Source: an uncultured Verrucomicrobiota bacterium
GTDB lineage: Bacteria; Verrucomicrobiota; Kiritimatiellia; CAIQIC01; CAZMXS01
NCBI GenBank assembly: GCA_964570325.1
Contig: CAZMXS010000011.1
Location: 23,287-87,286 of the forward strand
Length of the DNA stretch: 64,000 nucleotides
Direction of reading: 5' to 3'
Notes under the pieces: generated by a model
Database searches by the model: none
What the model was told of the DNA's origin: nothing
Seen by the model: the letters and a program-made list of their open reading frames with translations, nothing else
In this document: positions 48,898 through 63,896 of the stretch, one piece after another
How the letters are laid out: each line of letters opens with the position of its first letter
Numbering within the stretch: position 1 is the first letter of the stretch
Position numbers and translations under genes: made by a program

Positions 48898-50031
48898 ATG
48901 TCGCCGACGGATCAACTGGTAATGGAAACCGGCCGCGAACCGGATGGAGCATTGCGGATCGCGCTGCATGGCCGGCTGGACATCCACACGGCCGGCGGGG
49001 TGTGGGCGGACGCCGTGCGCGCCCTGGATGAATTGGACGGGCGCAAACTGGTGATTGACGCGGCGGCGGTCAGCTACTGCGACGGGGCGGGGGTCGGGTT
49101 GCTGGTCGAATTATGCCGGCGGCGCGGGCGCGCGGGTGCCGGCTGGGAAGTGCGCGGGTTGCGCCCCGAATTTCAGCACATCTTCAACTTGTTCAATCCC
49201 GATGATTTCGCGCCGATGCCGCATGCGCCCCATCGCCTGGCCGCCTGGCCGGAGGAGGTGGGGCGCGCGGTCGGGCGCGTCGCGGTTGACCTGCGTCAGC
49301 AGATTGGTTTTGTCGGCGAGCTGTCCGCGGCGGTGGCCATGGCGATACGGCATCCGGGCCGGGTGCGGTGGGGCGATATTCTGCGGGTGATGGAACTGGC
49401 GGGGGTCAACGCCCTGCCGATCGTCGCCCTGATCGGGCTTCTGCTCGGGTTGATCCTGGCCTTCCAGTCGGCGATCGCTCTCAGCCGCTATGGCGCCGAG
49501 CTGTTTGTCGCCAATCTGGTCGCGCTCTCCCTGTTTCGCGAACTGGGGCCGTTGATGACGGCGATCATTTTGACGGCCCGATCCGGTTCCGCGTTTGCGG
49601 CGGAGATTGGCACCATGAAGGTCAACGAGGAGGTGGACGCGCTGATCACGATGGGTCTGGACCCCGTGCGCTTCCTGGTGGTGCCGCGCGTGCTGGGGGC
49701 GGTGGTGGTGACGCCGCTGCTGACGGTTTTCGCGAACCTGTTCGGACTGATCGGCGCGGCGGTTGTCGTGCGCTCGCTGGGCTATCCGCTGGTGACCTAT
49801 GTCAACCAGGTGGTATCGGCCGTCAATGTGACCGCGGCGGTCGGCGGACTGGTCAAGGCATTTGTTTTTGGCGTGCTGGTGGCGGCGGTTGGCTGCCTGC
49901 GCGGCTTGCAGACGCAGAGCGGCGCCAGCGCCGTGGGCGACGCCACCACGCGCGCCGTGGTCAGCGGCATCGTCCTGATTGTGTTGGCGGACGGGTTGTT
50001 TTCGGTCCTGTTTTACTACCTGGGGGTCTAG
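48898..50031 (+). CDS. mlaE: MlaE-family ABC permease with N-terminal STAS-domain fusion
   Basis: The N-terminal ~100 aa is STAS-like (LVIDAAAVSYCDGAGVGLLVEL). The C-terminal ~260 aa is the MlaE/Ttg2B permease (RSGSAFAAEIGTMKVNEEVDAL). Confidence 0.8.
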   Translation: MSPTDQLVMETGREPDGALRIALHGRLDIHTAGGVWADAVRALDELDGRKLVIDAAAVSYCDGAGVGLLVELCRRRGRAGAGWEVRGLRPEFQHIFNLFNPDDFAPMPHAPHRLAAWPEEVGRAVGRVAVDLRQQIGFVGELSAAVAMAIRHPGRVRWGDILRVMELAGVNALPIVALIGLLLGLILAFQSAIALSRYGAELFVANLVALSLFRELGPLMTAIILTARSGSAFAAEIGTMKVNEEVDALITMGLDPVRFLVVPRVLGAVVVTPLLTVFANLFGLIGAAVVVRSLGYPLVTYVNQVVSAVNVTAAVGGLVKAFVFGVLVAAVGCLRGLQTQSGASAVGDATTRAVVSGIVLIVLADGLFSVLFYYLGV

Positions 50032-52520: not shown

Positions 52521-53627
52521 CTATTCCGTGTCCGCTGCCTGGAAAGTCAAAATCACTTCGGTGCCGTGATCCTCGGGATGGCGCTCCGCGTCGCGCGAGC
52601 GCACCTCGATTTCGCCGCCGTAGAAATGCATGAAACGTTGGACCAGCGGCATCCCGAAGCCGGTGCCGATCTCGCCGGCCGTGCCGGTGCGGCTGGTCTT
52701 TTTGCTGATATCGAAAAGATCGCGCAGGATGGCGGGCGGGATGCCGATGCCCTGGTCGCGCACGGTCACTCGCACGCGTTTGCCGGCGCGTTCCGCCGCG
52801 AGGGTGATGCTGGAGTCCGGCAGCGAGAACTTGAGCGCGTTGGTCAGCAGATTGTTGATGACGGAGTTGACGAGCGAGGTCATCTCCGCGATCACGCGCA
52901 AGCCGGTGTCAGCCGGCCACGCCAGTTTCACGCCTTTCAGGTCGAGCTGCGGTTTGAGGATGCGCGCGGAGAGCGCGAACGCCGCGTCGAGGGCCACGGG
53001 GCCGAGCGGCAGCTTGAACTCCTCGAGCGCCCGCATCCGGCGGACCATATCAATCAAGTCCAACCCGTTCCGGGCCAGCGCGCGGATCAGCTCGCGTGGG
53101 TCATAGTTCCCGGCCGCGGCCGCCGCCAGTTCCGGGGTCGCGAGCATTTGGATATTGCCCAGCGTGGTCACCAGGTCGTGACAGAGCACGTGCAGCATTT
53201 CCTTGCGCTCGCGGCCAACCTGTTCCAGCGCCGCCCGGTGGCGCGCCAGGTCCAGGTGCGTGCGCACGCGCGCGCGCAGCTCGTCGGCATTGAACGGTTT
53301 GGTGATGTAGTCCACGGCGCCCAGCGCGAACCCGCGCGTCAGCGCCTCCGTTTCCGCGCGCGCGGTCAGGAAAATGACCGGAATATCAGCCAGCCGCCGG
53401 TCGGCTTTCAACCGGCGGCAGGTCTCGTAGCCGTCCAGGTCGGGCATCAGCACATCGAGCAGGATCAGGTCCGGCGGATCCTCGGCCGCGATGGCGAGCG
53501 CCTCCACACCGTTGCTGGCGCAGACGATCTCGACGTCCTCCTCGCGTAGCACGCTGCCGGCCACCTGGATATTCTCCGCCACGTCGTCCACGAGCAGGAG
53601 CAGCGGCGGTCGTCGTTCCGGGTTCAT
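52521..53627 (-). CDS. receiver-histidine kinase fusion (N-terminal REC, HisKA, HATPase)
   Basis: REC LLLVDDVAENI...LLDVLMPDLDG. H-box VLCHDLVTTLGNI. HATPase G-boxes. Confidence 0.8.
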   Translation of the reverse strand: MNPERRPPLLLLVDDVAENIQVAGSVLREEDVEIVCASNGVEALAIAAEDPPDLILLDVLMPDLDGYETCRRLKADRRLADIPVIFLTARAETEALTRGFALGAVDYITKPFNADELRARVRTHLDLARHRAALEQVGRERKEMLHVLCHDLVTTLGNIQMLATPELAAAAAGNYDPRELIRALARNGLDLIDMVRRMRALEEFKLPLGPVALDAAFALSARILKPQLDLKGVKLAWPADTGLRVIAEMTSLVNSVINNLLTNALKFSLPDSSITLAAERAGKRVRVTVRDQGIGIPPAILRDLFDISKKTSRTGTAGEIGTGFGMPLVQRFMHFYGGEIEVRSRDAERHPEDHGTEVILTFQAADTE

Positions 53628-54187
53628 GGTTCATCAATCCCAAAGTGTTTTTTCAGGCAATCCGGGCAGATGCCGTGGGAGAAGTTGGTGCCGGTCCGGC
53701 GGTGGATGAAAAAGTCAATCCGTTCCCAATGGTTATCGGCCTCGCGGATGCGATTGCAGTAGGAGCAGATCGGAAGCAGGCTTTCCAGTTGACGCAGGCG
53801 CAGGTGGGTGCGGACGCGGGCCTTCAACTCGGCCGGCTTGAAGGGCTTGGTGACGTAATCCACGGCGCCGGCGTCGAAGCCCTGTACGATGTCGTCCGTT
53901 TCCGCCCGCGCCGTGATGAAGATCACCGGGATGGTGGAAACGGCCGGCATGCGTTTGAGCTGGCGGCAGACCGCGAAGCCATCCATGCCGGGCATCATCA
54001 CGTCGAGCAGGATCAAGTCCGGCGGATCTTCACGGATGAAATCGAGGGCCTCCTGGCCGCTGGCGGACAGGCCGATATCCACATCCTCTTCCTGCAGGAT
54101 CTGCCCCAGCACCTGCAGGTTCTCCGGCACGTCGTCCACGAGCAGGACGAGCGGCCGATTTTGTTTCCCCTCACGACTTGTCCGCAT
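53624..54187 (-). CDS. response regulator with C-terminal CxxC...CPxC zinc-ribbon-like output domain
   Basis: [14 protein letters not shown]...[11 protein letters not shown]...TKPF. The tail [39 protein letters not shown] has two Cys pairs 24 aa apart. Overlaps both flanking kinase genes. Confidence 0.7.
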
Positions 54188-56612
54188 GGCCGGCCCCCTT
54201 CATTTCCCGTTGCGCCGTCCGGGCCAGGCTTTCCAGGCTCCGGACGATATCCGGATACTCCGCCAATACGCCGGGCAGCGCCCGGGTGTCAATGCTTTCC
54301 GCCTTGTTCTGGAGCCGGGCGGCCCAGGCGCCGAGCGCCGGCGCGGCGTGCGCCAGCGCCAGTTCCTGCACGCGCGTGGCCAGATCCTTGATTTTATTGA
54401 TATACAGTCGGCGGCGCACGCCTTCCCAAAGCGGCTGAACCTCGGTCGCCAGGACGGCCAGCAACTCCGGCCAGCGGGTGGGATCGGGCGCTACGGTCGG
54501 TCCCGGTGGCGCGGCCGGCGCGGGCGTCGGCGCGGCAGCGGTCGCCGTATCCGCCAACGGCAAAAAACGCGCCAGCTCGCGGCAGAGCGCGTCGCGCGTG
54601 ACGGGTTTGAAGACCACCCCGTCGCAGCCGGCCTCCCGGATGACCTCGGCGGTGTTGCCCATGATGGAAGCCGTGACCGCCACCAAGGGGATGCCGCAAA
54701 GTTCCGGATCGGCCTTGAGCCGGGCGCAAACCTCGTACCCGTCCATCTCGGGCATTTTCATGTCCAGCAGGATGAGGGCGGGCCGTTGTTGCCGCACGGC
54801 CGCGAGCACCTGCCGGCCATTTTCGGCTTGTTGCAGCAACAGGCCGGTGCCTTCCAGGTAGGCCGCCAACAGGTTGCGATTGGCGGCGACATCATCGGCT
54901 ACCAGCACCTGGGCCGGCTGGAAACGCAACGGGCGCTCGCTCGCCGGGGCCAGACTCTCGCCGGCGCAAGGCCGCACCTTTTCTAGAATCAGGCGGAAGA
55001 CGCTGCCCTGGCCGACAACGCTTTCGACCTCGATGCGCCCGCCCAGCAGTTCGGCCAGGCGGCGGCTGATCGTCAGGCCCAATCCCGTGCCTCCATACTG
55101 GGCATGGCTCTGGCCGCGGCGCTGCTGGAAGGCTTCAAAGATCAATTCGCGGTCATCTTCGGGGATGCCGATGCCCGTGTCCCGCACCTCGATCACCAGG
55201 CGCAGCATCTCCGCTTCCGGCTGCGGTTCGGCGCGCGCCGCGAGCGTGATGCCGCCCTGGTGGGTGAACTTGACGGCGTTGCCGGCGAGATTGAGCAGGA
55301 TCTGCCGCAGGCGGATCTCGTCCAGCCACACATAGGATGGCAGGGACGCGTCCGCCTCCACGTCGAAGCGGATGGCTTTCTCCGCGCACTTGGTCCGAAA
55401 GATCTGTTGGATCTCGTTCAAGACGGCGCGCGGATCCAGCGCCGCGAAGTGTACCTCGATCCGGCCGGCCTCGATCTTGGACAAATCCAGAATGTCGTTG
55501 ATCAGCGTCAGCAAGGTCCGGCCGCTGGCCTGGATGGAGTCGAGGAACTCGCGTTGCATGGGGTCGGTGCAGCGTCCGATCAGCACCTCGGTGAAGCCGA
55601 GGATCGCGTTCATCGGGGTGCGGATTTCGTGACTCATGTTGGCCAGGAACTCGCTCTTGGCCGCGCTGGCCATTTCGGCCTTGACCGCCAGGTCGTTGGC
55701 GCGCGCGATCGCCGCCTCGAGCCGGCGGTTGGCCTCCTCGGCGTTGGCGCGGGCGGCCTGGGCATCCAGCATCAGGTTCAGCGCCGCCCGCCGTTGCCGG
55801 GCCAGTTCCGCGGCGCGCTGGGTCAGCATCTGATTGGCGGCCCGCTGCTGTTCCTCCGCCTGCACGCGCGCGGTGATATCCTGGAACGTGCCGTTCAACC
55901 TGACCGTTTTCCCGTCCATTATCTGCGGAATGCAGATGGCGCGCACCCAGATCAGCCGGCCCTTGGCCGTTACGAACCGGCACTCCAGGTCGAATGGCGT
56001 CCCGTGCGCCATGGATTCGGCGACGGCCTCGCGAACGCGGCCCCGGTCCTCCGGGTGGTAAAAGTTGATGGCCTCTTCAATCCGCGGTTCGTAGTCCGGC
56101 GGCACTTCATGGATGCGGTAGGTTTCGGTGGTCCAGCTCAACTCGCGGGTCGGGATATCGAACGACCAGCCGCCGATCTGCGCCATACGCCCGGTCGCAT
56201 CCAACAAATCTCGGCTGGCCTGCAGATCCGTGCGCGACTCCCGTAGATTGGCCACCATCGTGTTGAAGGAGCGGGCGAAGTCACCCATGAAGTCCACGTG
56301 CTGAGTGAGGTCGCCATGGGCGATGCGCTCGGTCTGCCAAGCCAGATGGCGCAGGTCGGCTTGCAGGGATTTCAGCGCCCCGGCCAGTGTGCCGCGCACT
56401 TTCAATTCCGCCGCCAGATTGCCATTTGCCAGCGCCAGCGCAAAATCCCGGATGGCCTGGGCTTGCGCCGCCAGATCCCGGAACAACGGGTCGCGCGCCA
56501 GGGCCGGCGGGGTCTCGGGCGGCGCCTCGCCCGTGATAATCAGCGCGCGCAGGGCCGCGAGAGCCGCGCGGGTCTCGGGTGCAAGCGCATCGTTCTGGTC
56601 GGGTTCGGGCAT
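54171..56612 (-). CDS. cytoplasmic hybrid sensor histidine kinase (HAMP-like, PAS, HisKA, HATPase, REC, C-terminal helical/Hpt-like)
   Basis: 813 aa with no TM segment. HAMP-like [28 protein letters not shown]-box [15 protein letters not shown]. HATPase. [17 protein letters not shown]...[11 protein letters not shown]. Confidence 0.85.
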
Positions 56613-56706
56613 GCTGTTTTATACTCTTCCTATACTCTTGCCCCTGCTCACATTCTTCCTCTTCTTCTTCCTTCCCGGGGGGCTGGCCGCGCGTATACCG
56701 AGGGCT

Positions 56707-57228
56707 TTACTTCACCGCCTCCGCCGCGAAGCGGCAGGTCCGGTCGCCGGTGCACCAGCAATCCACTTCCTTGACCTTGAACGGCCGGCCGCTGAACGAT
56801 TCGAGCAGGGCGGCGATGAAGCCTTCGTCATACTTGCAAATCTCGAATTCGGTTTCCGGCAGGCCCGAGCAGTCGAGATCCTCGGAGACCGTAATGACGA
56901 ACCGGCCCTGCTGGAGATCGGCCTGCTCCACGCGCAACACACCGATGCCCATTTCCAGCAGCGTTTCCTGGATGCGGCGGATAAAGACATCGAAATCCCG
57001 CTGCTCCCCCAGCACATGCCGGTAAAATTCCCGGCCGGCCAGTTCGCCGGCCGCGTAGAAAATCCGGTCGGCCTCTTCCGCGCCGTAACGGGCCTCGATC
57101 ACATCGCGGAAAGTGAACTGCATCAGCCGGTAAACCTCCAATCGCGCCGTCGGTCCCAGGTTGGGCCGGCCGACTTGCAGGTTGCCTAGCAGATTCCATT
57201 GGAACTGGTATTTACGGGTTGGGTTCAT
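56707..57228 (-). CDS. V4R (4-vinyl-reductase-like) small-ligand-binding domain protein
   Basis: 173 aa. C-terminal Cys-containing V4R signature DCWCTGDRTCRF. Overlaps the upstream sensor gene by 17 nt. Confidence 0.65.
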   Translation of the reverse strand: MNPTRKYQFQWNLLGNLQVGRPNLGPTARLEVYRLMQFTFRDVIEARYGAEEADRIFYAAGELAGREFYRHVLGEQRDFDVFIRRIQETLLEMGIGVLRVEQADLQQGRFVITVSEDLDCSGLPETEFEICKYDEGFIAALLESFSGRPFKVKEVDCWCTGDRTCRFAAEAVK

Positions 57229-59023
57229 CGGTTTTCTTGGCCTCCTCTTCGGGTAACGGGTAGGCCGGCGGCAGGCCGGCTGCGGCCCGGAGTTGGTTGA
57301 TTTCCGCTTTCAGCTCGATCATGCGCAGCTCGCGTCCGACCATGATCTGGTTGAACTGCTCCAGTTCCTCCATGGCCAGCCGCAGCTTTTCGTTCAATGC
57401 CTTCTGCTCCCGGTATAATTCCTCGGCGCGGGCCTTGGCCTGCGTGGCGTCTTCCATGATGCTCAACGCGTGTCGGCGGGAGTGCTCCAATTCCGCCGCG
57501 CGTCGTTCGAGCTCGGCGTTGACTGCGCGCAGACGCGCTTCGTTGGCGTGGATGGTCGCCTCGGCGCGCTGCGCTTCGGTGCAGTCCTCGATAATTCCGA
57601 CACCGCCAAGAATCTGGCCGTTCGCATCGGTGATGCGTTGCATGTACATGCGGATGGGGACGATCTTGCCGGAGAGCACGGACGTGTAGTCTCCCTCATA
57701 GAAGCTGAGTTCGCCGGCGAGCGCCTGGTGAATGGCCCCCAGCATCTTTTCATCCCGGATCTGCCGCAACAAATTGAACCCCCGCAGTTGTTCCGCGCTG
57801 ACGTTGAATAGCCGCAGCAGGCGTTCGTTGAAATCGCGGACGATGCCTTGTGCATCGCAATACAGCAGGCCGAGCGGCGCGTGCTGAAACACCATTCGGA
57901 AACGCTCCTCGCTGGTGCGCAGGGCCTGCGCCGTCGCTTCTCGCTCGGCCAGTCCCTTTTCCAGTTGCCGTTGCACCAGCCGCATTTGGTGGTTGAGTCG
58001 GGTGGTGGCGATCAGCAGGCCGGCCATTATGGCCAGCAGCAAGACGCCGCCCGCGATCGGTTTCCAAAAACGCGCCAATAAGTCTGCGGCGCTCATGTCG
58101 CCCAGCTTTTCAAATGGGCTGACGCGCAGCTCCTGCAGGCAGTCCACCACCGGCTGGTAATTCATGGGGAACAGCCAACGGATACGTGGCGCGGTTTTGT
58201 CCGCGGCGGAGGGGGGCATGGCCAGGAGCGCAATGGCGGTGTGCATCGCCGTATCGCGGTCCACATGCGGCAGGACGGCGCACGGCCACTCGGGATACAG
58301 CCGGGTGCTCAAGTGGAAGGGAAACACTTCGGGCGCGTAATGGAAATGTGGGGAGGGCAGCACCTTGAAATCCTCCAATCGGATAACCCCGTCGGCGGCC
58401 ATATCTTCCAGAACCAGGGTGCGGACCACGCCCGCGTCAGCCCGGCCGTCGCGCACCATGGCGACCACCTCGTCATGGTTGCGGGTGAACCGGAGGGCCC
58501 GGAAATCCTTTTCCGGATCCAGGCCGTCGTGCTGGAATTCGCGCCGGGCGGCGACCCAACCGCCGAACGACTTGGGGTCCACGGCGGCAAACGTCCGGCC
58601 CTTCAGGTCCGCGAAGCGGGCGATGTCGGCCCGATCTGCGCGGGTGAACACGACCCCGCCGAACAGTCCGGCCGCCAGCTCGCCCGAACCCCGCTCGGAG
58701 GTGGCGATGGCGCTGGCCTCGTTCAGCATCTGGAACTCGACGTACAGGCCGGAGTTACAGATAACGAAATCCACGAGTTTGGAACGTACCGCGGCCGCGA
58801 TTTCTTCGAAGCCAAGCGGCGCCAGTTCGTATTGCCACGGCAGGCCCGCTTGGTTGAGATGCGCGATCGTCGGCGACCAGGTGCGCACACATTTGCCCGT
58901 CCCCTCGTTGGCCAGGGCGCCGACGCGGTATACGGTCCCCGTCCCGGCGCGGGCGGCGAGCACGCCACCCAGCGCAAGCAGGCCGGCGACGGCCGCCGCT
59001 TTCCAAATGTCACACCGCATCAT
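57212..59023 (-). CDS. membrane sensor: periplasmic PhnD/SsuA-like SBP domain, TM, PAS, long C-terminal coiled coil; no kinase/output domain
   Basis: Signal peptide MMRCDIWKAAAVAGLLALGGVLA. PhnD-like TVYRVGALANEGTG. TM FWKPIAGGVLLLAIMAGLLIA. PAS. The coiled coil ends ...FNQIMVGRELRMIELKAEINQLR. Confidence 0.65.
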   Translation of the reverse strand: MMRCDIWKAAAVAGLLALGGVLAARAGTGTVYRVGALANEGTGKCVRTWSPTIAHLNQAGLPWQYELAPLGFEEIAAAVRSKLVDFVICNSGLYVEFQMLNEASAIATSERGSGELAAGLFGGVVFTRADRADIARFADLKGRTFAAVDPKSFGGWVAARREFQHDGLDPEKDFRALRFTRNHDEVVAMVRDGRADAGVVRTLVLEDMAADGVIRLEDFKVLPSPHFHYAPEVFPFHLSTRLYPEWPCAVLPHVDRDTAMHTAIALLAMPPSAADKTAPRIRWLFPMNYQPVVDCLQELRVSPFEKLGDMSAADLLARFWKPIAGGVLLLAIMAGLLIATTRLNHQMRLVQRQLEKGLAEREATAQALRTSEERFRMVFQHAPLGLLYCDAQGIVRDFNERLLRLFNVSAEQLRGFNLLRQIRDEKMLGAIHQALAGELSFYEGDYTSVLSGKIVPIRMYMQRITDANGQILGGVGIIEDCTEAQRAEATIHANEARLRAVNAELERRAAELEHSRRHALSIMEDATQAKARAEELYREQKALNEKLRLAMEELEQFNQIMVGRELRMIELKAEINQLRAAAGLPPAYPLPEEEAKKTDEPNP

Positions 59024-60563
59024 AGCGAGGCGCTTCCTGGAGCCGCCGGAGCAGCTCGTTGACTTCCCGTTTCAGCTCGATGATCCGGTCCTCGCGGCCG
59101 GCCATCGCGCGGTTCATCTGCTCGACCTCCGCCAGCGTCGCGCGCAGGCGCGTGTCCGCGCCTTCGCGCTCGGTGATGTCCTCCACCAGCACGATATAGC
59201 CCAGGCGGCCGCCCGGATCGCGCAGCGCATTAATGATGATCATCAGTATCCGTTTGCCGCATTTGCGGGTCCGGTATAATTGGCGCTCGCGGACGAGGTC
59301 AAAATCGAAATCCACCTTGTATCGGACGGCTTCGCCTTGCTCGAGGCGCGGTCGGACATCGGCGGGCAGATTCGGATCGTCGAATAGCTTGAAGCCGCGG
59401 ATCTCGGTGGGATCCTCGACGCCGAAGATGTCGAGGATCGTCGTGTTGACGTCCAGCAATCGGCCCGCGGCGTCGTACACCTCGATGCCGATGGGCGCTT
59501 GGGCGAAGACGCCGCGGAAACGCGCCTCGCTCTCGCGCAGCGCCATTTCAACCTGGTGCTGGGCGGTGATATCCCGCAGGATCTCGATGCGGCCGCGTTC
59601 GGCTTGCCGCGCGTCGCGGACAACAGCAGTGCTATAGTCGAACCACCGTGTCTGGCCGGACAACTCCAGAGATCGAACGCCGGGCGCGGCGGCCAGCAAG
59701 TCGGGCCACGGCGCCGGCAGCTCGTCTCGATGCTTGCCGATGCACGCATGTGGCGGACACCCGACTTCATGCGCTGCTGCCGCGTTGAGGTCCACCAACC
59801 GGTGTTGGCGGTCCGTAACGAAGACCAGTTCGGGCAAGTGGTCCAGCAGCACGCCGCGCGCGATCGGGCGGATATCGAGGGCGCGATAGCCCAGGACCAC
59901 CCAGGCCGCTGTGGCGACCGAGACGGACAGCGCGAACGGCGCCAGGTTGATATGCGGCACTGGAGACCGACCCAGGTTAAACAATAAGTTGAAAACCAGG
60001 GGAACGATATATCCGGCCAACAGCAGCGCGATCTGCCGCCGCACGAGCGGCGCCGCGCCGCGCCAGTGCCATGCCAGCAGCAGCGGGACCAGGATAGCCA
60101 GCAGGTTGATAAAAATGATGTAAATTCGATACCATATTCCATTGGTGCAGATCAGGATGCCCAGCCGGCCGGCGGGATCCAATGGATAGACAGTGAAGTC
60201 ATATTGAAACAGATGGTGGAGCGGGGCGGTGAGGGCGAGTGCGATGGTCGCCAGGTTCCAGACCACGATGGCGGACCAGAACCAGCGGGGCAGGCGGACC
60301 CCAATGCCCAGCATATCGCGCAGCAGGTACAGCCAGACCACCGGAATCCAAGGCAGGCAAACAAAACGGGCGAGGTGCGCGGCGATCTTCGCCTCGCGGG
60401 TCGGCAAAACCAGTTCCAGGTAATAGGAGAGCGCCCAGCCGCCGCTGACGAGCAGCATCGTAAAAAAGGTGGTCGTGACGTTGCTGCGCGGGCGTGTTTG
60501 AGCATACCAGGCCAGGAGCATGTAGGCGACGACGTTGAAAATCAGAATATCCGCGAAGATCAT
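59010..60563 (-). CDS. membrane sensor: 7-TM-type N-terminal domain, two PAS domains, C-terminal coiled coil; no kinase/output domain
   Basis: The ORF-track start at 60617 is trimmed to the ATG at 60563 (MIFADILIF...). About 7 hydrophobic helices. Two PAS domains. Ends ...MNRAMAGREDRIIELKREVNELLRRL. Overlaps the downstream sensor gene by 14 nt. Confidence 0.65.
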   Translation of the reverse strand: MIFADILIFNVVAYMLLAWYAQTRPRSNVTTTFFTMLLVSGGWALSYYLELVLPTREAKIAAHLARFVCLPWIPVVWLYLLRDMLGIGVRLPRWFWSAIVVWNLATIALALTAPLHHLFQYDFTVYPLDPAGRLGILICTNGIWYRIYIIFINLLAILVPLLLAWHWRGAAPLVRRQIALLLAGYIVPLVFNLLFNLGRSPVPHINLAPFALSVSVATAAWVVLGYRALDIRPIARGVLLDHLPELVFVTDRQHRLVDLNAAAAHEVGCPPHACIGKHRDELPAPWPDLLAAAPGVRSLELSGQTRWFDYSTAVVRDARQAERGRIEILRDITAQHQVEMALRESEARFRGVFAQAPIGIEVYDAAGRLLDVNTTILDIFGVEDPTEIRGFKLFDDPNLPADVRPRLEQGEAVRYKVDFDFDLVRERQLYRTRKCGKRILMIIINALRDPGGRLGYIVLVEDITEREGADTRLRATLAEVEQMNRAMAGREDRIIELKREVNELLRRLQEAPRYDAV

Positions 60564-60721
60564 AGCTGTCCCAAGCCGCTGATGGACACATTTTGATGGC
60601 GTTCTGGGAAAAGCCAAGCGGATAATGGTATGGATTCAACCGGATAGCAGGGGATCAATCGTACAAAACCCGCTAAATCTGTTTGCCGCCGCGCGGCCGT
60701 TTTGCCTAACATCCGGCCCGC

Positions 60722-62735: not shown

Positions 62736-63896
62736 CTACGGAATCTTTCGCACCTTGACGCGATAATACCGCCGGCCGCGCTCCGGCGGTCCGCCGGTCG
62801 TGTTCGCGCCCTCGTCGTCCACGAACACATGCGTTGAGGAAACCGTGTTTGTCTCCATCCAGGTTCCGATGTCGTCTGCCGGATTCGCGAAGGGCCGCCA
62901 TGGTACCCCGTTCGACAACTCGTGATCCGTGTAGTAGATTGTGTATTCCCGGCCCGGCTGTGTCGGCACCACAATCAGATGGTTCGTTTCGTCCTCCGTC
63001 GCCGGTGCGTCCGATTCAAAGCGCGACCCGCCATCGGTCGGTTCGGTGCCTGCGATATACTCATGCCGGTTGTCCGCGCCGTCTCCGTCGGAGTCCGCCG
63101 CCGGATCGTTGGTCAGCGACTCGAAATGCGTCCACTCCCAACCGTCCGCGATCCCGTCGCCGTCCCAGTCTGCGGGCACGACGATCTGCGCGAGGTTCGT
63201 CACGACGCTGTTGGTCAAGCCCTTCTGGTCATCTGCGACGAAGACTAGCAGGTTCGTGCTGTTCTCGTCCGCCGCGCCGGCAGTCCAAGCAAAATGGTTG
63301 GTGACGAACGTCGAGCCGGCCGGCCGGGCCGTGTTCGACAGCAGGACTGCGTCATGGTCCGGGTCGGTCGCGGTCACGACGAAGCCCGTGGATGCACCGA
63401 CCGCCAGCGTGCGCAGGGCGTCCAGGCTGATTTCCGGAGGCCGGTTGTCGTACAGAGCGAAGAGTTCAAACTCGTCCACGTCCACGCCCCAAGTGGCGAG
63501 GTCGGAGGCGATCCGGATCTCGCGGGTCCCGCTGGTGATCGCCCCGAGGAAAAGCGTGGATGAGTTGCGGAAGTCGGTCCAGTAACCGGTGTCCTCGGAC
63601 GGGAACTTTGCGCGCAGGGCGTTATCCACGTATACTTGCACCTTGTTTGGCCCGACGTCGTCGGAATAACGCACGCGCAGGAAGGTGTTGGAATACGTCG
63701 AGGGCACATTCACCCGGTAAACCAGGAACGGGTTCGCTCCGGAGTGTTCCAAGTGCATCGAGGCGTTGCTGACGGCGCCTACGCGCCATGCGAAGCTGGC
63801 GTTGGTCCCGGCATCGGACGATTCGCCCTGCCGCGTCAGGATATCCTTCTTGACCCGGCCGCGCGAGGGCGGGGAGGCCAGGTAAAACCCATCCAA
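62736..63896 (-). CDS. secreted protein with jelly-roll/CBM-like N-terminal part and thrombospondin-type-3-like Ca-binding DxDGDG motifs
   Basis: 386 aa. DWDGDGIADGWEW and DSDGDGADNRHEY acidic Ca-binding loops. Ends ...RYYRVKVRKIP. Confidence 0.55.
   Translation of the reverse strand: MDGFYLASPPSRGRVKKDILTRQGESSDAGTNASFAWRVGAVSNASMHLEHSGANPFLVYRVNVPSTYSNTFLRVRYSDDVGPNKVQVYVDNALRAKFPSEDTGYWTDFRNSSTLFLGAITSGTREIRIASDLATWGVDVDEFELFALYDNRPPEISLDALRTLAVGASTGFVVTATDPDHDAVLLSNTARPAGSTFVTNHFAWTAGAADENSTNLLVFVADDQKGLTNSVVTNLAQIVVPADWDGDGIADGWEWTHFESLTNDPAADSDGDGADNRHEYIAGTEPTDGGSRFESDAPATEDETNHLIVVPTQPGREYTIYYTDHELSNGVPWRPFANPADDIGTWMETNTVSSTHVFVDDEGANTTGGPPERGRRYYRVKVRKIP

Follow-up and report, generated by a model that had tools for sequence, protein, structure and literature searches.

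Kinase-less PAS sensors with a conserved C-terminal module as candidate subunits of a split two-component system in an uncultured Verrucomicrobiota bacterium

Here we describe a candidate multi-protein two-component system in a 64-kb stretch of DNA from an uncultured Verrucomicrobiota bacterium (contig CAZMXS010000011.1, positions 23,287 to 87,286; hereafter the window). Six open reading frames (ORFs) on its minus strand at 52521-60617, named g1 to g6 in the direction of reading, encode two sensors (g1 and g2), a V4R ligand-binding protein (g3), a hybrid histidine kinase (g4) and two further proteins with REC domains (g5 and g6). On the evidence of sequence comparison, g1 and g2 are probably kinase-less sensor subunits, and the module that forms their C-terminal tails would signal in trans to g4. 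Because the tail defines a protein family, because its genes and those of the kinases stand in a directional and reciprocal order, and because a kinase-side element typical of the partner kinases is present in g4, such a split between sensor and kinase appears well supported. A first-pass annotation of the window had proposed this arrangement. The proposal held with respect to gene order, fusions and a partner motif in g4, whereas its details of partner type, docking site and V4R protein did not. A literature search returned no description of the tail motif or of output-less PAS sensors of this kind, nor of the kinase-side element or its pairing with the module. As far as this search shows, module, element and pairing are new, which suggests that this wiring of separate sensors to kinases is undescribed.

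A shared C-terminal module on output-less sensors

Gene g1 (59010-60617, minus strand) encodes a protein of 535 amino acids (aa) with a seven-transmembrane (7TM) region of the HisKA_7TM type, two PAS domains and the tail module. In the 603-aa protein encoded by g2 (57212-59023, minus strand), a signal or transmembrane (TM) segment, a PhnD-type solute-binding domain, a second TM segment, a PAS domain and a long coiled coil precede the module. A hydropathy scan placed about seven TM segments in g1, the signal/TM segment plus one TM segment (residues 323-341) in g2, and none in g3 to g6, in agreement with the earlier statement that the kinase g4 has no membrane anchor. Likewise as proposed, g1 and g2 lack a recognisable enzymatic output, as Pfam searches at E ≤ 0.1 found no HisKA, HATPase, GGDEF, EAL or HD domain in either. 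The module has a length of about 55 residues and occupies residues 480-535 of g1 (59013-59180, core 59022-59117, minus strand; DITEREGADTRLRATLAEVEQMNRAMAGREDRIIELKREVNELLRRLQEAPRYDAV) and residues 547-588 of g2 (57260-57385, minus strand; LRLAMEELEQFNQIMVGRELRMIELKAEINQLRAAAGLPPAY). The two tails are identical at 19 of 40 positions (pairwise E 3e-10), a hand recount reproduced the 16 of 29 identities first reported, and their pattern has no third occurrence in any of the six reading frames of the window.

A profile built from the two tails and searched against 1.84 billion representative proteins matched 10,861 protein clusters at E ≤ 1e-3 and 1,184 at E ≤ 1e-10 (clusters at 50% identity). 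Among the best 150 proteins, which are the representatives closest to the window tails, 151 of 168 tail occurrences have their end no more than 60 aa from the C-terminus, and the median distance to it is 9 aa. The consensus of 60 aligned tails reads DITERKxAEExLRxxxxELERFNRxMVGRELRMIELKxEVNxLxxxxGxPPRY; the final Tyr and one residue each of Arg, Glu and Lys are invariant, and N, G, R, E, L, E and N are near-invariant. The signature GRE..ELK..N..PPxY is represented by NRAMAGREDRIIELKREVNEL...PRY in g1 and by NQIMVGRELRMIELKAEINQL...PPAY in g2, and both tails form the C-terminal end of a sensor without enzymatic output, as is characteristic of the family. A scan of one genome per species confirmed at least 565 tail matches in more than 10 phyla; those listed include Verrucomicrobiota, Nitrospirota, Acidobacteriota, Planctomycetota, Desulfobacterota, Gemmatimonadota, Chloroflexota, Bacteroidota, Elusimicrobia, Proteobacteria and others.

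According to Pfam, 96 full-length tail proteins contain PAS (90), PocR (11), REC (10), GAF (10), HAMP (8) and dCache (6) domains, and CHASE, HisKA_7TM, SBP_bac_3, MASE1 and DUF4118 in a few proteins each. HATPase_c was detected in one of the 96 and no cyclase or phosphodiesterase in more than one. These figures bear out the prediction that the tail lies at the C-terminus of output-less PAS proteins. Its restriction to membrane sensors did not prove to be a rule, as a TM segment was found in only 24 of 90 tail proteins and most are thus soluble. After each of the 17 internal copies of the module come a low-complexity linker and a further sensor unit (PocR, REC or TM-CHASE), which suggests that the module marks the end of a sensor unit and is not a rigid transmitter to what follows. 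In P0042, P0044, P0050, P0052, P0053, P0094, P0099, P0106 and P0161, an internal module is very often succeeded by a linker, PocR and an AAL(N/S)L(A/L)ED element.

Consistent with the earlier claim that the motif belongs to no named domain, Pfam has no family that covers the tail, even at E ≤ 10, and precomputed matches, which include very recent Pfam accessions, likewise contain none. Permissive thresholds in NCBIfam and Pfam returned only coiled-coil noise for the tail, and the PDB contained no significant match by sequence or profile. The 60-aa g2 tail was too short a query for a word-indexed protein search, which gave no match, and a search with full-length g2 recovered only relatives with a solute-binding protein (SBP) domain and PAS but without the tail. 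Among these g2 relatives, P0003, P0004 and P0006 are output-less SBP-TM-PAS proteins of about 530 aa with another short coiled-coil end (..EIELQKARKLLQLYAREIERL..) that lacks GRE..ELK..PPxY. Database names of tail family members are uninformative or wrong, e.g., 'butyrate kinase' or 'chromosome segregation ATPase'.

In an AlphaFold2 (AF2) model of g1 residues 355-535, one unbroken helix extends from the last PAS strand to just before QEAPRY with a predicted local distance difference test score (pLDDT) of 94-97 and is followed by coil; the tail helix comprises 44 residues. The model is reliable for this helix only, as the PAS core has a pLDDT below 60 because the alignment covered the tail only. 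An a/d heptad pattern is continuous over five heptads (columns 20-55 of the 60-tail alignment). In our own heptad assignment the invariant Arg occupies a core d position and conserved charged residues occupy e and g, and conserved module residues are found on all faces of the helix. The spacing from the D-I-T motif of the PAS domain to the Gly of G-R-E is quantised (n = 194), with 27 residues in 136 tails, 34 in 39 and 20 in one. It is 27 in g1 and, counted from D480(CT) to G563, 83 in g2, i.e., 27+8x7. Such quantisation argues for a mechanical register between module and sensor like that expected of an output domain.

The position of the module corresponds to that of a kinase dimerisation and histidine phosphotransfer (DHp) domain. 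Profile comparison by hhalign of the tails with PAS-to-HisKA linkers from kinases of the NxELExFxYxxSHDLRxPL type gave a probability of 95% (E 1.7e-8) for a match that spans DITERK...NxELExF only and ends at the start of the H-box. The Phe of ELExF precedes the Gly of G-R-E by six residues in 238 of 238 tails and the phospho-accepting His by six residues in 54 of 55 kinases. HisKA (PF00512) itself matched neither g1 nor g2 at E ≤ 0.1 and none of the 60 tails at E ≤ 10. The identity with HisKA that the first-pass annotation had named as an objection to its own reading was thus found by half: the N-terminal half of the tail is homologous to the HisKA linker and a Gly stands at the His position, yet the tail is not a HisKA domain. 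It shares with DHp domains the coiled-coil linker that leaves the sensor in heptad register (spacing 20, 27 or 34 in 176 of 194), and differs from them in the Gly at the His position, in the single helix without a hairpin and in the absence of an ATP-binding domain. We conclude that the module is a putative derivative of DHp helix 1, with His replaced by Gly and without the second helix or the catalytic domain, that has apparently gained a new conserved end, ELKxEVNxL....GxPPxY.

Gene order and a kinase-side element

Neighbours of tail genes were counted from naive ORF calls in 80 genome loci, the best-scoring 80 per scan and some of them from related genomes; ORFs were called from the first possible start codon and overlaps are therefore upper bounds. 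For 86 of 90 tail genes, an ORF on the same strand starts between -300 and +400 nt from the stop codon, frequently with a 4-nt overlap. The 76 downstream neighbours encode HATPase_c (33), HisKA (30) and REC (19), while REC (17) and HATPase_c (7) were found among 71 upstream neighbours. When a kinase core was searched for, the immediate same-strand neighbour was a kinase in 34 of 83 cases downstream versus 5 of 73 upstream (p=6.5e-7), and a kinase started within 1.5 kb in 45 of 77 versus 17 of 64 cases. Architectures of the 34 downstream kinases are diverse, with 21 lacking and 13 possessing TM segments, and the soluble HAMP-PAS kinase proposed as the typical partner is therefore not the rule. 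A conserved N-terminal docking motif was not found in the downstream kinases, whose N-termini are heterogeneous, and the N-terminal 135 aa of g4 have no relative in the 80 loci. The idea that partner kinases belong to the ELEAFSYSVSHDL HisKA subtype, which resembles the tail, was rejected, as a hand count found this subtype in only about 7 of 34.

The first-pass annotation had placed contact with the sensor tails in kinase residues 1-150; the comparative signal lies instead at residues 272-289 of g4 (55746-55799, minus strand), in the coiled coil between PAS and HisKA. g4 (54171-56612, minus strand) encodes a soluble HAMP-PAS-HisKA-HATPase_c-REC hybrid kinase of 813 aa with a 120-aa C-terminal region without family match. 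Alignment with a Paroceanicella kinase revealed a common RRAALN(L/M)M.D segment in the PAS-to-HisKA linker, the kinase-side element, which was counted as the pattern [AST][AST][LMI][NS][LVIM][LMAI].D. It was present in 37 of the 46 nearest same-strand downstream kinases compared to 8 of 50 other kinase-like ORFs of the same loci (p=1.8e-10), in 1 of 90 tail proteins and in 13 of 880 other ORFs with a length of 200 aa or more. Downstream of the tail gene, an ORF with the element begins within 3 kb in 45 of 69 cases; upstream, one ends within this distance in 1 of 63 (p=2e-16). The tails of g1 and g2 conform to this family pattern, with g4 as the same-strand downstream kinase that bears the element. 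In g4, the core of the element (residues 274-284) is part of a segment located 34 residues after the PAS D-I-T and 49 residues, or seven heptads, before His328. True S-helices (..ERTAEL..) often occur upstream of the kinase-side element. Pfam holds no family for the element, and NCBIfam and Pfam at permissive thresholds gave coiled-coil noise.

The association is reciprocal. Metagenome contigs were scanned with AALN[LMV]MED; the scan yielded 253 confirmed matches, and of its 80 best-scoring loci 67 are non-redundant. A tail gene was located within 3 kb upstream on the same strand in 18 of the 28 non-redundant loci with at least 3.2 kb of upstream DNA, and two further loci carry tail and element in one protein. 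Tail gene and element gene are directly adjacent in 13 pairs and have one gene of about 1 kb between them in nine.

Spacing of the element is also quantised. The distance from its Asn to the phospho-accepting His is 28, 35, 42, 49, 56 or 63 in 16 of 17 cases of up to 63 residues, in which HisKA directly follows the element, and 67 (56+11) in nine more. Proteins that contain both motifs are of the types REC-element-module (272-276 aa), PAS-element-module and TM-HAMP-element-module, and the distance from element Asn to module Gly is mostly 42, 49 or 56 in them. Module Gly and kinase His are thus equivalent in a second reference frame, too. In two loci (L111 and L165), the double-motif protein sits between the tail gene and the element gene. 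By comparison with the element consensus, g2 carries a degenerate element at residues 515-531 (57431-57481, minus strand; SRRHALSIMEDATQAKA), which a hand count placed 42 residues, or six heptads, before its own module Gly, a spacing as in the double-motif proteins. g1 carries the module only and no element.

Module and kinase parts were also encountered in fusions, as module-REC-HisKA-HATPase (L059) and as PAS-GAF-module-linker-PocR-HisKA-HATPase (P0161). In Paroceanicella profunda, the gene FDP22_RS20655 (two SBP_bac_3, three PAS, tail) overlaps FDP22_RS20660, which encodes a HAMP-PAS-PAS-HisKA-HATPase-REC-Hpt protein and is followed by an EAL response regulator. The gene order in Aeromonas caviae is REC-HD-GYP gene, tail sensor and hybrid kinase; in strain KAM479 (L084, NZ_AP026896.1 2572439-2586603) this trio interrupts the histidine operon between a hisA-like and a hisF-like gene. 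The record NZ_AP026896.1, of 4.9 Mb, was deposited as a plasmid and carries almost no annotation (18 features). Stand-alone genes for a coiled coil plus module (92-102 aa) close an RsbW/SpoIIE/STAS operon, where they overlap the preceding gene by 4 nt, and lie 13-18 nt upstream of a DUF4118-CHASE3-multi-PAS kinase of 1,134-1,727 aa. In loci L085-L090 (e.g., L085 3321-11480), the 92-94-aa module protein is encoded by the fifth gene of an operon, behind those for PAS-STAS, STAS, an RsbW-like kinase and a HATPase_c_2-SpoIIE phosphatase and directly ahead of a giant CHASE3 multi-PAS kinase, a position that would link the module to partner-switching systems.

Partner kinases in loci L018, L037, L043, L054, L061 and L010 have no sensor domain; they consist of an N-terminal coiled coil, the element 28-42 residues before the His, and the kinase core, and look like pure receivers for a separate sensor. 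Nine of the 76 downstream neighbours of tail genes encode NMT1-type binding proteins of about 340 aa and are themselves followed by a kinase. A gene of this size for an NMT1/THI5-type substrate-binding protein follows the tail gene in L006, L009, L016, L029, L036, L042, L045, L046, L056 and L059, and gaps of about 1 kb separate the tail gene from the element-bearing kinase in L095, L102, L121, L129, L131, L133, L135 and L144. An NMT1/THI5-type gene in this intermediate position points to systems of three parts, a sensor, a small binding protein and a kinase. The V4R gene g3 holds the same slot, as a small gene between tail gene and kinase. V4R was detected in 0 of 80 related loci and is thereby ruled out as a conserved partner. 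The co-sensor role that the first-pass annotation assigned to it found no backing in these loci, but some small ligand-binding gene between tail gene and kinase recurs.

Proposed signalling and alternative readings

It is tempting to propose a mechanism for the signalling of g1 and g2 to g4. The fixed heptad register between module and PAS core would let ligand-induced changes in the sensors arrive at the module as they do at the DHp domain of a kinase. A dimer of the module would then most likely pack against the helices of the Ala-rich element to form a DHp-like bundle with g4; with Ala at a and Leu at d (in our register), the element may offer a surface that is able to take extra helices into the bundle. 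Such a contact would alter autophosphorylation of g4 and phosphotransfer to its own REC domain, to g5 and to g6, and the tight operon coupling could favour assembly of cognate pairs. Because a degenerate element and a module are both found in g2, signals may also be relayed in the gene order g1, g2, g4. In this scheme of the locus, g1 would provide an output port, g2 an input and an output port, and g4 an input port and the kinase, with the REC proteins g5 and g6 to follow; g3 may add a small-molecule input that is specific to this locus.

Several observations speak against the proposed contact, which is suggested by the co-occurrence of module and element. Where both lie on one rod they are six to eight heptads apart, which precludes binding within a chain; a third factor could recognise both. 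Roughly one tail gene in three lacks an element gene within 3 kb, some 29% of element loci lack an upstream tail gene, and the depth of the element inside kinases is very variable. The nearly invariant Asn is replaced by Ser in the g2 element, and Glu by Leu in the g4 element. In our heptad assignment, the conserved Arg at g and Lys at the next e' would repel each other in a parallel homodimer, which makes the assumed homodimeric state of the module uncertain. In addition, the neighbour counts derive from naive ORFs, a regex-defined element and the 80 best loci, which come in part from related genomes.

Other readings have to account for the same features. The tail could be a pseudo-substrate or decoy of the H-box helix that binds the catalytic and ATP-binding (CA) domain or the REC domain and thereby inhibits or sequesters its partner under control of the sensor, in which case the element would be a subfamily marker only. 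Gly-Arg-Glu exactly at the His position, a lead-in linker homologous to kinase linkers and conserved residues on all helix faces are compatible with such a decoy, as are the REC domains that are common near tail genes (17 of 71 upstream and 19 of 76 downstream) and of which the locus contains three according to Pfam. We nevertheless consider it unlikely, as it leaves unexplained why the element, and not the type of kinase core, tracks the tail genes when HisKA subtypes of the partners are diverse, and why element and module keep a heptad register in double-motif proteins. A mere dimerisation cap for PAS dimers, with signalling via PAS or none at all and a gene order that reflects general clustering of signalling genes, would account for the heptad coiled coil; short LOV proteins end in a comparable helix, to which a weak match was obtained (PDB 2yon, E 0.1). 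A cap seems improbable in view of the near-invariant residues at non-core positions across phyla and the terminal Tyr after the helix. Furthermore, stand-alone module proteins without a sensor domain exist, and the link to one motif in the next kinase is strictly one-directional (45/69 vs 1/63).

A role of the tail peptide in translation, in place of one as a folded output module, is highly improbable; a Pro-Pro pause, for instance, could adjust how strongly the overlapping downstream kinase gene is expressed or how its product assembles during synthesis. In favour of such a role, some 30 conserved residues lead up to PP-x-Y a few codons ahead of the stop, a 4-nt overlap with the downstream gene is frequent, and the 92-aa stand-alone versions resemble leader ORFs before giant kinase genes. 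Against a pausing peptide stand the register to the PAS core, which is quantised in heptads (27, 34 or 27+7n), and the hydrophobic a/d periodicity of a coiled coil; 17 copies are internal with further domains after them, and the number of residues after the Tyr is variable, unlike at a fixed stall site. That g1 and g2 are decaying, truncated or frameshifted ordinary kinases is already refuted, even though HisKA_7TM and TtrS-like SBP sensor parts otherwise occur on kinases. More than 10,000 clusters share the tail with its stop codon, none of the frames continues into a kinase-like ORF, and the next genes start at or before the stop. The locus is also present, identical, on an 87-kb contig of Joint Genome Institute (JGI) metagenome 3300023203, i.e., in independent assemblies. 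Frameshifted fragments, the caveat raised in the first-pass annotation, are excluded because the DNA after each tail encodes the N-terminus of the next gene product (the SBP signal peptide and V4R, respectively) and a stop after the tail is the norm of the family.

Beyond the trans-signalling of g1 and g2 to g4, a more general role is conceivable, which we put forward tentatively: module and element could be the output and input ports of a general, undescribed connector by which sensors plug into kinases and into each other. As parts of such a connector, the double-port proteins (REC-element-module, TM-HAMP-element-module and g2) would be relay or integration stages, and the gene order would mirror a signal flow g1 -> g2 -> g4. 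Many environmental bacteria would then possess modular multi-sensor kinase assemblies.

The usual picture of two-component signalling has a single sensor-kinase protein and a single regulator. If sensors such as g1 and g2 do signal in trans, a large class of output-less 'PAS domain S-box proteins' would gain a function as detachable sensor subunits, a class of more than 10,000 clusters at 50% identity from Verrucomicrobiota, Planctomycetota, Acidobacteriota, Nitrospirota, Desulfobacterota, Chloroflexota, Bacteroidota and Proteobacteria. Sensors could then be assigned to their kinases from two short signatures, which would improve the annotation of environmental genomes. The module would also represent a natural plug-in connector for sensor engineering, and the DHp helix with its His-to-Gly exchange a defined model for the passing of coiled-coil signals between proteins.

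Remaining features of the locus and comparison with known systems

ORF calling recovered all six minus-strand genes at 52521-60617 where the first-pass annotation had placed them, and Pfam and NCBIfam agree with the domains it had assigned. The overlap of 4-17 nt claimed for their starts and stops applies to four junctions (14, 17, 17 and 4 nt), whereas g3 and g4 are set apart by a purine-rich spacer of 94 nt (56613-56706, minus strand), the sole non-overlapping junction among the six genes. The spacer is strongly purine-rich (GGGAAGGAAGAAGAAGAGGAAGAA...) and may hold an internal start signal for g4 to g6. For g1, the public gene call uses an alternative ATG at 60563 (517 aa), and the Pfam 7TM match begins seven residues later; this ATG is probably the true start and the TTG at 60617 the less likely one. 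The N-terminal 330 aa of g2 resemble the sensor region of TtrS (NCBIfam NF040750, E 9e-35 over residues 32-362) at 120 bits, far under the 750-bit cut-off. The PhnD-like periplasmic domain and the TM segment are present, and a TtrS-type kinase core was not found in the Pfam scan; g2 is a predicted relative of the sensor part of TtrS only.

g3 (56707-57228, minus strand) encodes a stand-alone V4R ligand-binding protein of 173 aa (Pfam V4R, E 6.9e-13). With HisKA, HATPase_c and REC in one protein, g4 fits a hybrid histidine kinase; an HPt domain was not found in it, either by Pfam or by BLAST of the C-terminal region against an HPt domain. This region after REC (residues ~690-813; 54171-54540, minus strand) consists of a Pro/Ala-rich linker and then about 90 helical-looking residues without family match. 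g5 (53624-54187, minus strand; 187 aa), presumed to be the response regulator of the locus, combines REC with a zinc-ribbon-like C-terminal tail of the type CxxC...HGxCPxC. This Cys-rich tail (residues 138-182; 53642-53776, minus strand) has no Pfam or NCBIfam family and only a faint match to Perm-CXXC. A g5-like Cys-rich tail follows a gene in another locus (L076, 11410-12030, E 1.5e-16), and it may be an uncharacterised regulator output. g6 (52521-53627, minus strand; 368 aa) is a REC domain fused to a kinase core (H-box CHDL, HATPase_c).

Elsewhere in the window, an ORF at 48898-50031 (plus strand) fuses STAS to an MlaE-type permease and is followed by an ABC ATPase gene; Pfam found STAS and MlaE in the public call of the same contig (L001 13972-15081). 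A 386-aa ORF at 62736-63896 (minus strand) with repeated acidic stretches of the DxDGDG type (DWDGDGIADGWEW, DSDGDGADNRHEY) may encode a calcium-binding secreted protein.

The tail belongs to none of the three known families HisKA, HOS and S-helix. With helix 1 of the HisKA DHp domain it shares the slot after PAS, HAMP or TM coiled coils, the N-x-E-L-E-x-F lead-in, the position six residues after the Phe and the heptad register to the element. It differs by Gly in place of His, by the lack of a second helix, of an ATP-binding domain and of a Pfam match, and by its ending in G-x-P-P-x-Y and a stop codon. In RpBphP1, the HOS domain is a kinase-less DHp relative that signals by binding PpsR2; it folds as a helix-turn-helix hairpin, builds a four-helix bundle of its own and has a repressor as partner (PMC6899989). 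Like the tail, HOS is a kinase-less relative of DHp that ends a PAS-type sensor. In contrast, the tail is a single helix in the AF2 model, without the two helices and the four-helix bundle of HOS, and is linked to kinases, and no sequence relation between the two was detected. The S-helix spans about 40 residues, or five heptads, of parallel coiled coil with E-R-T at positions c, d and e (Anantharaman, Balaji and Aravind 2006; PMC1592074). Five heptads, a length of about 40 residues, an Arg at core d and conserved polar residues at e and g are common to S-helix and tail. The S-helix, however, carries E-R-T and lies between two domains, while the tail carries G-R-E and is terminal in 90% of occurrences (151/168).

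Short LOV and PAS proteins such as PpSB1-LOV and PpSB2-LOV of Pseudomonas putida resemble the tail sensors in having a PAS core and one C-terminal coiled-coil helix, the J-alpha helix, but no enzymatic output. They lack the GRE...ELK...PPxY signature, and the match of the tail profile to the 30-residue C-terminal extension in PDB 2yon was non-significant. No cognate kinase motif is known for short LOV proteins. In LuxP-LuxQ, TorT-TorS and ChvE-VirA, a kinase is controlled by a ligand-binding protein that has no kinase activity itself and is encoded next to it. Those systems act in the periplasm through globular contacts and have no common docking module, whereas a single conserved cytoplasmic helix module is common to the sensors described here, with their many types of input.

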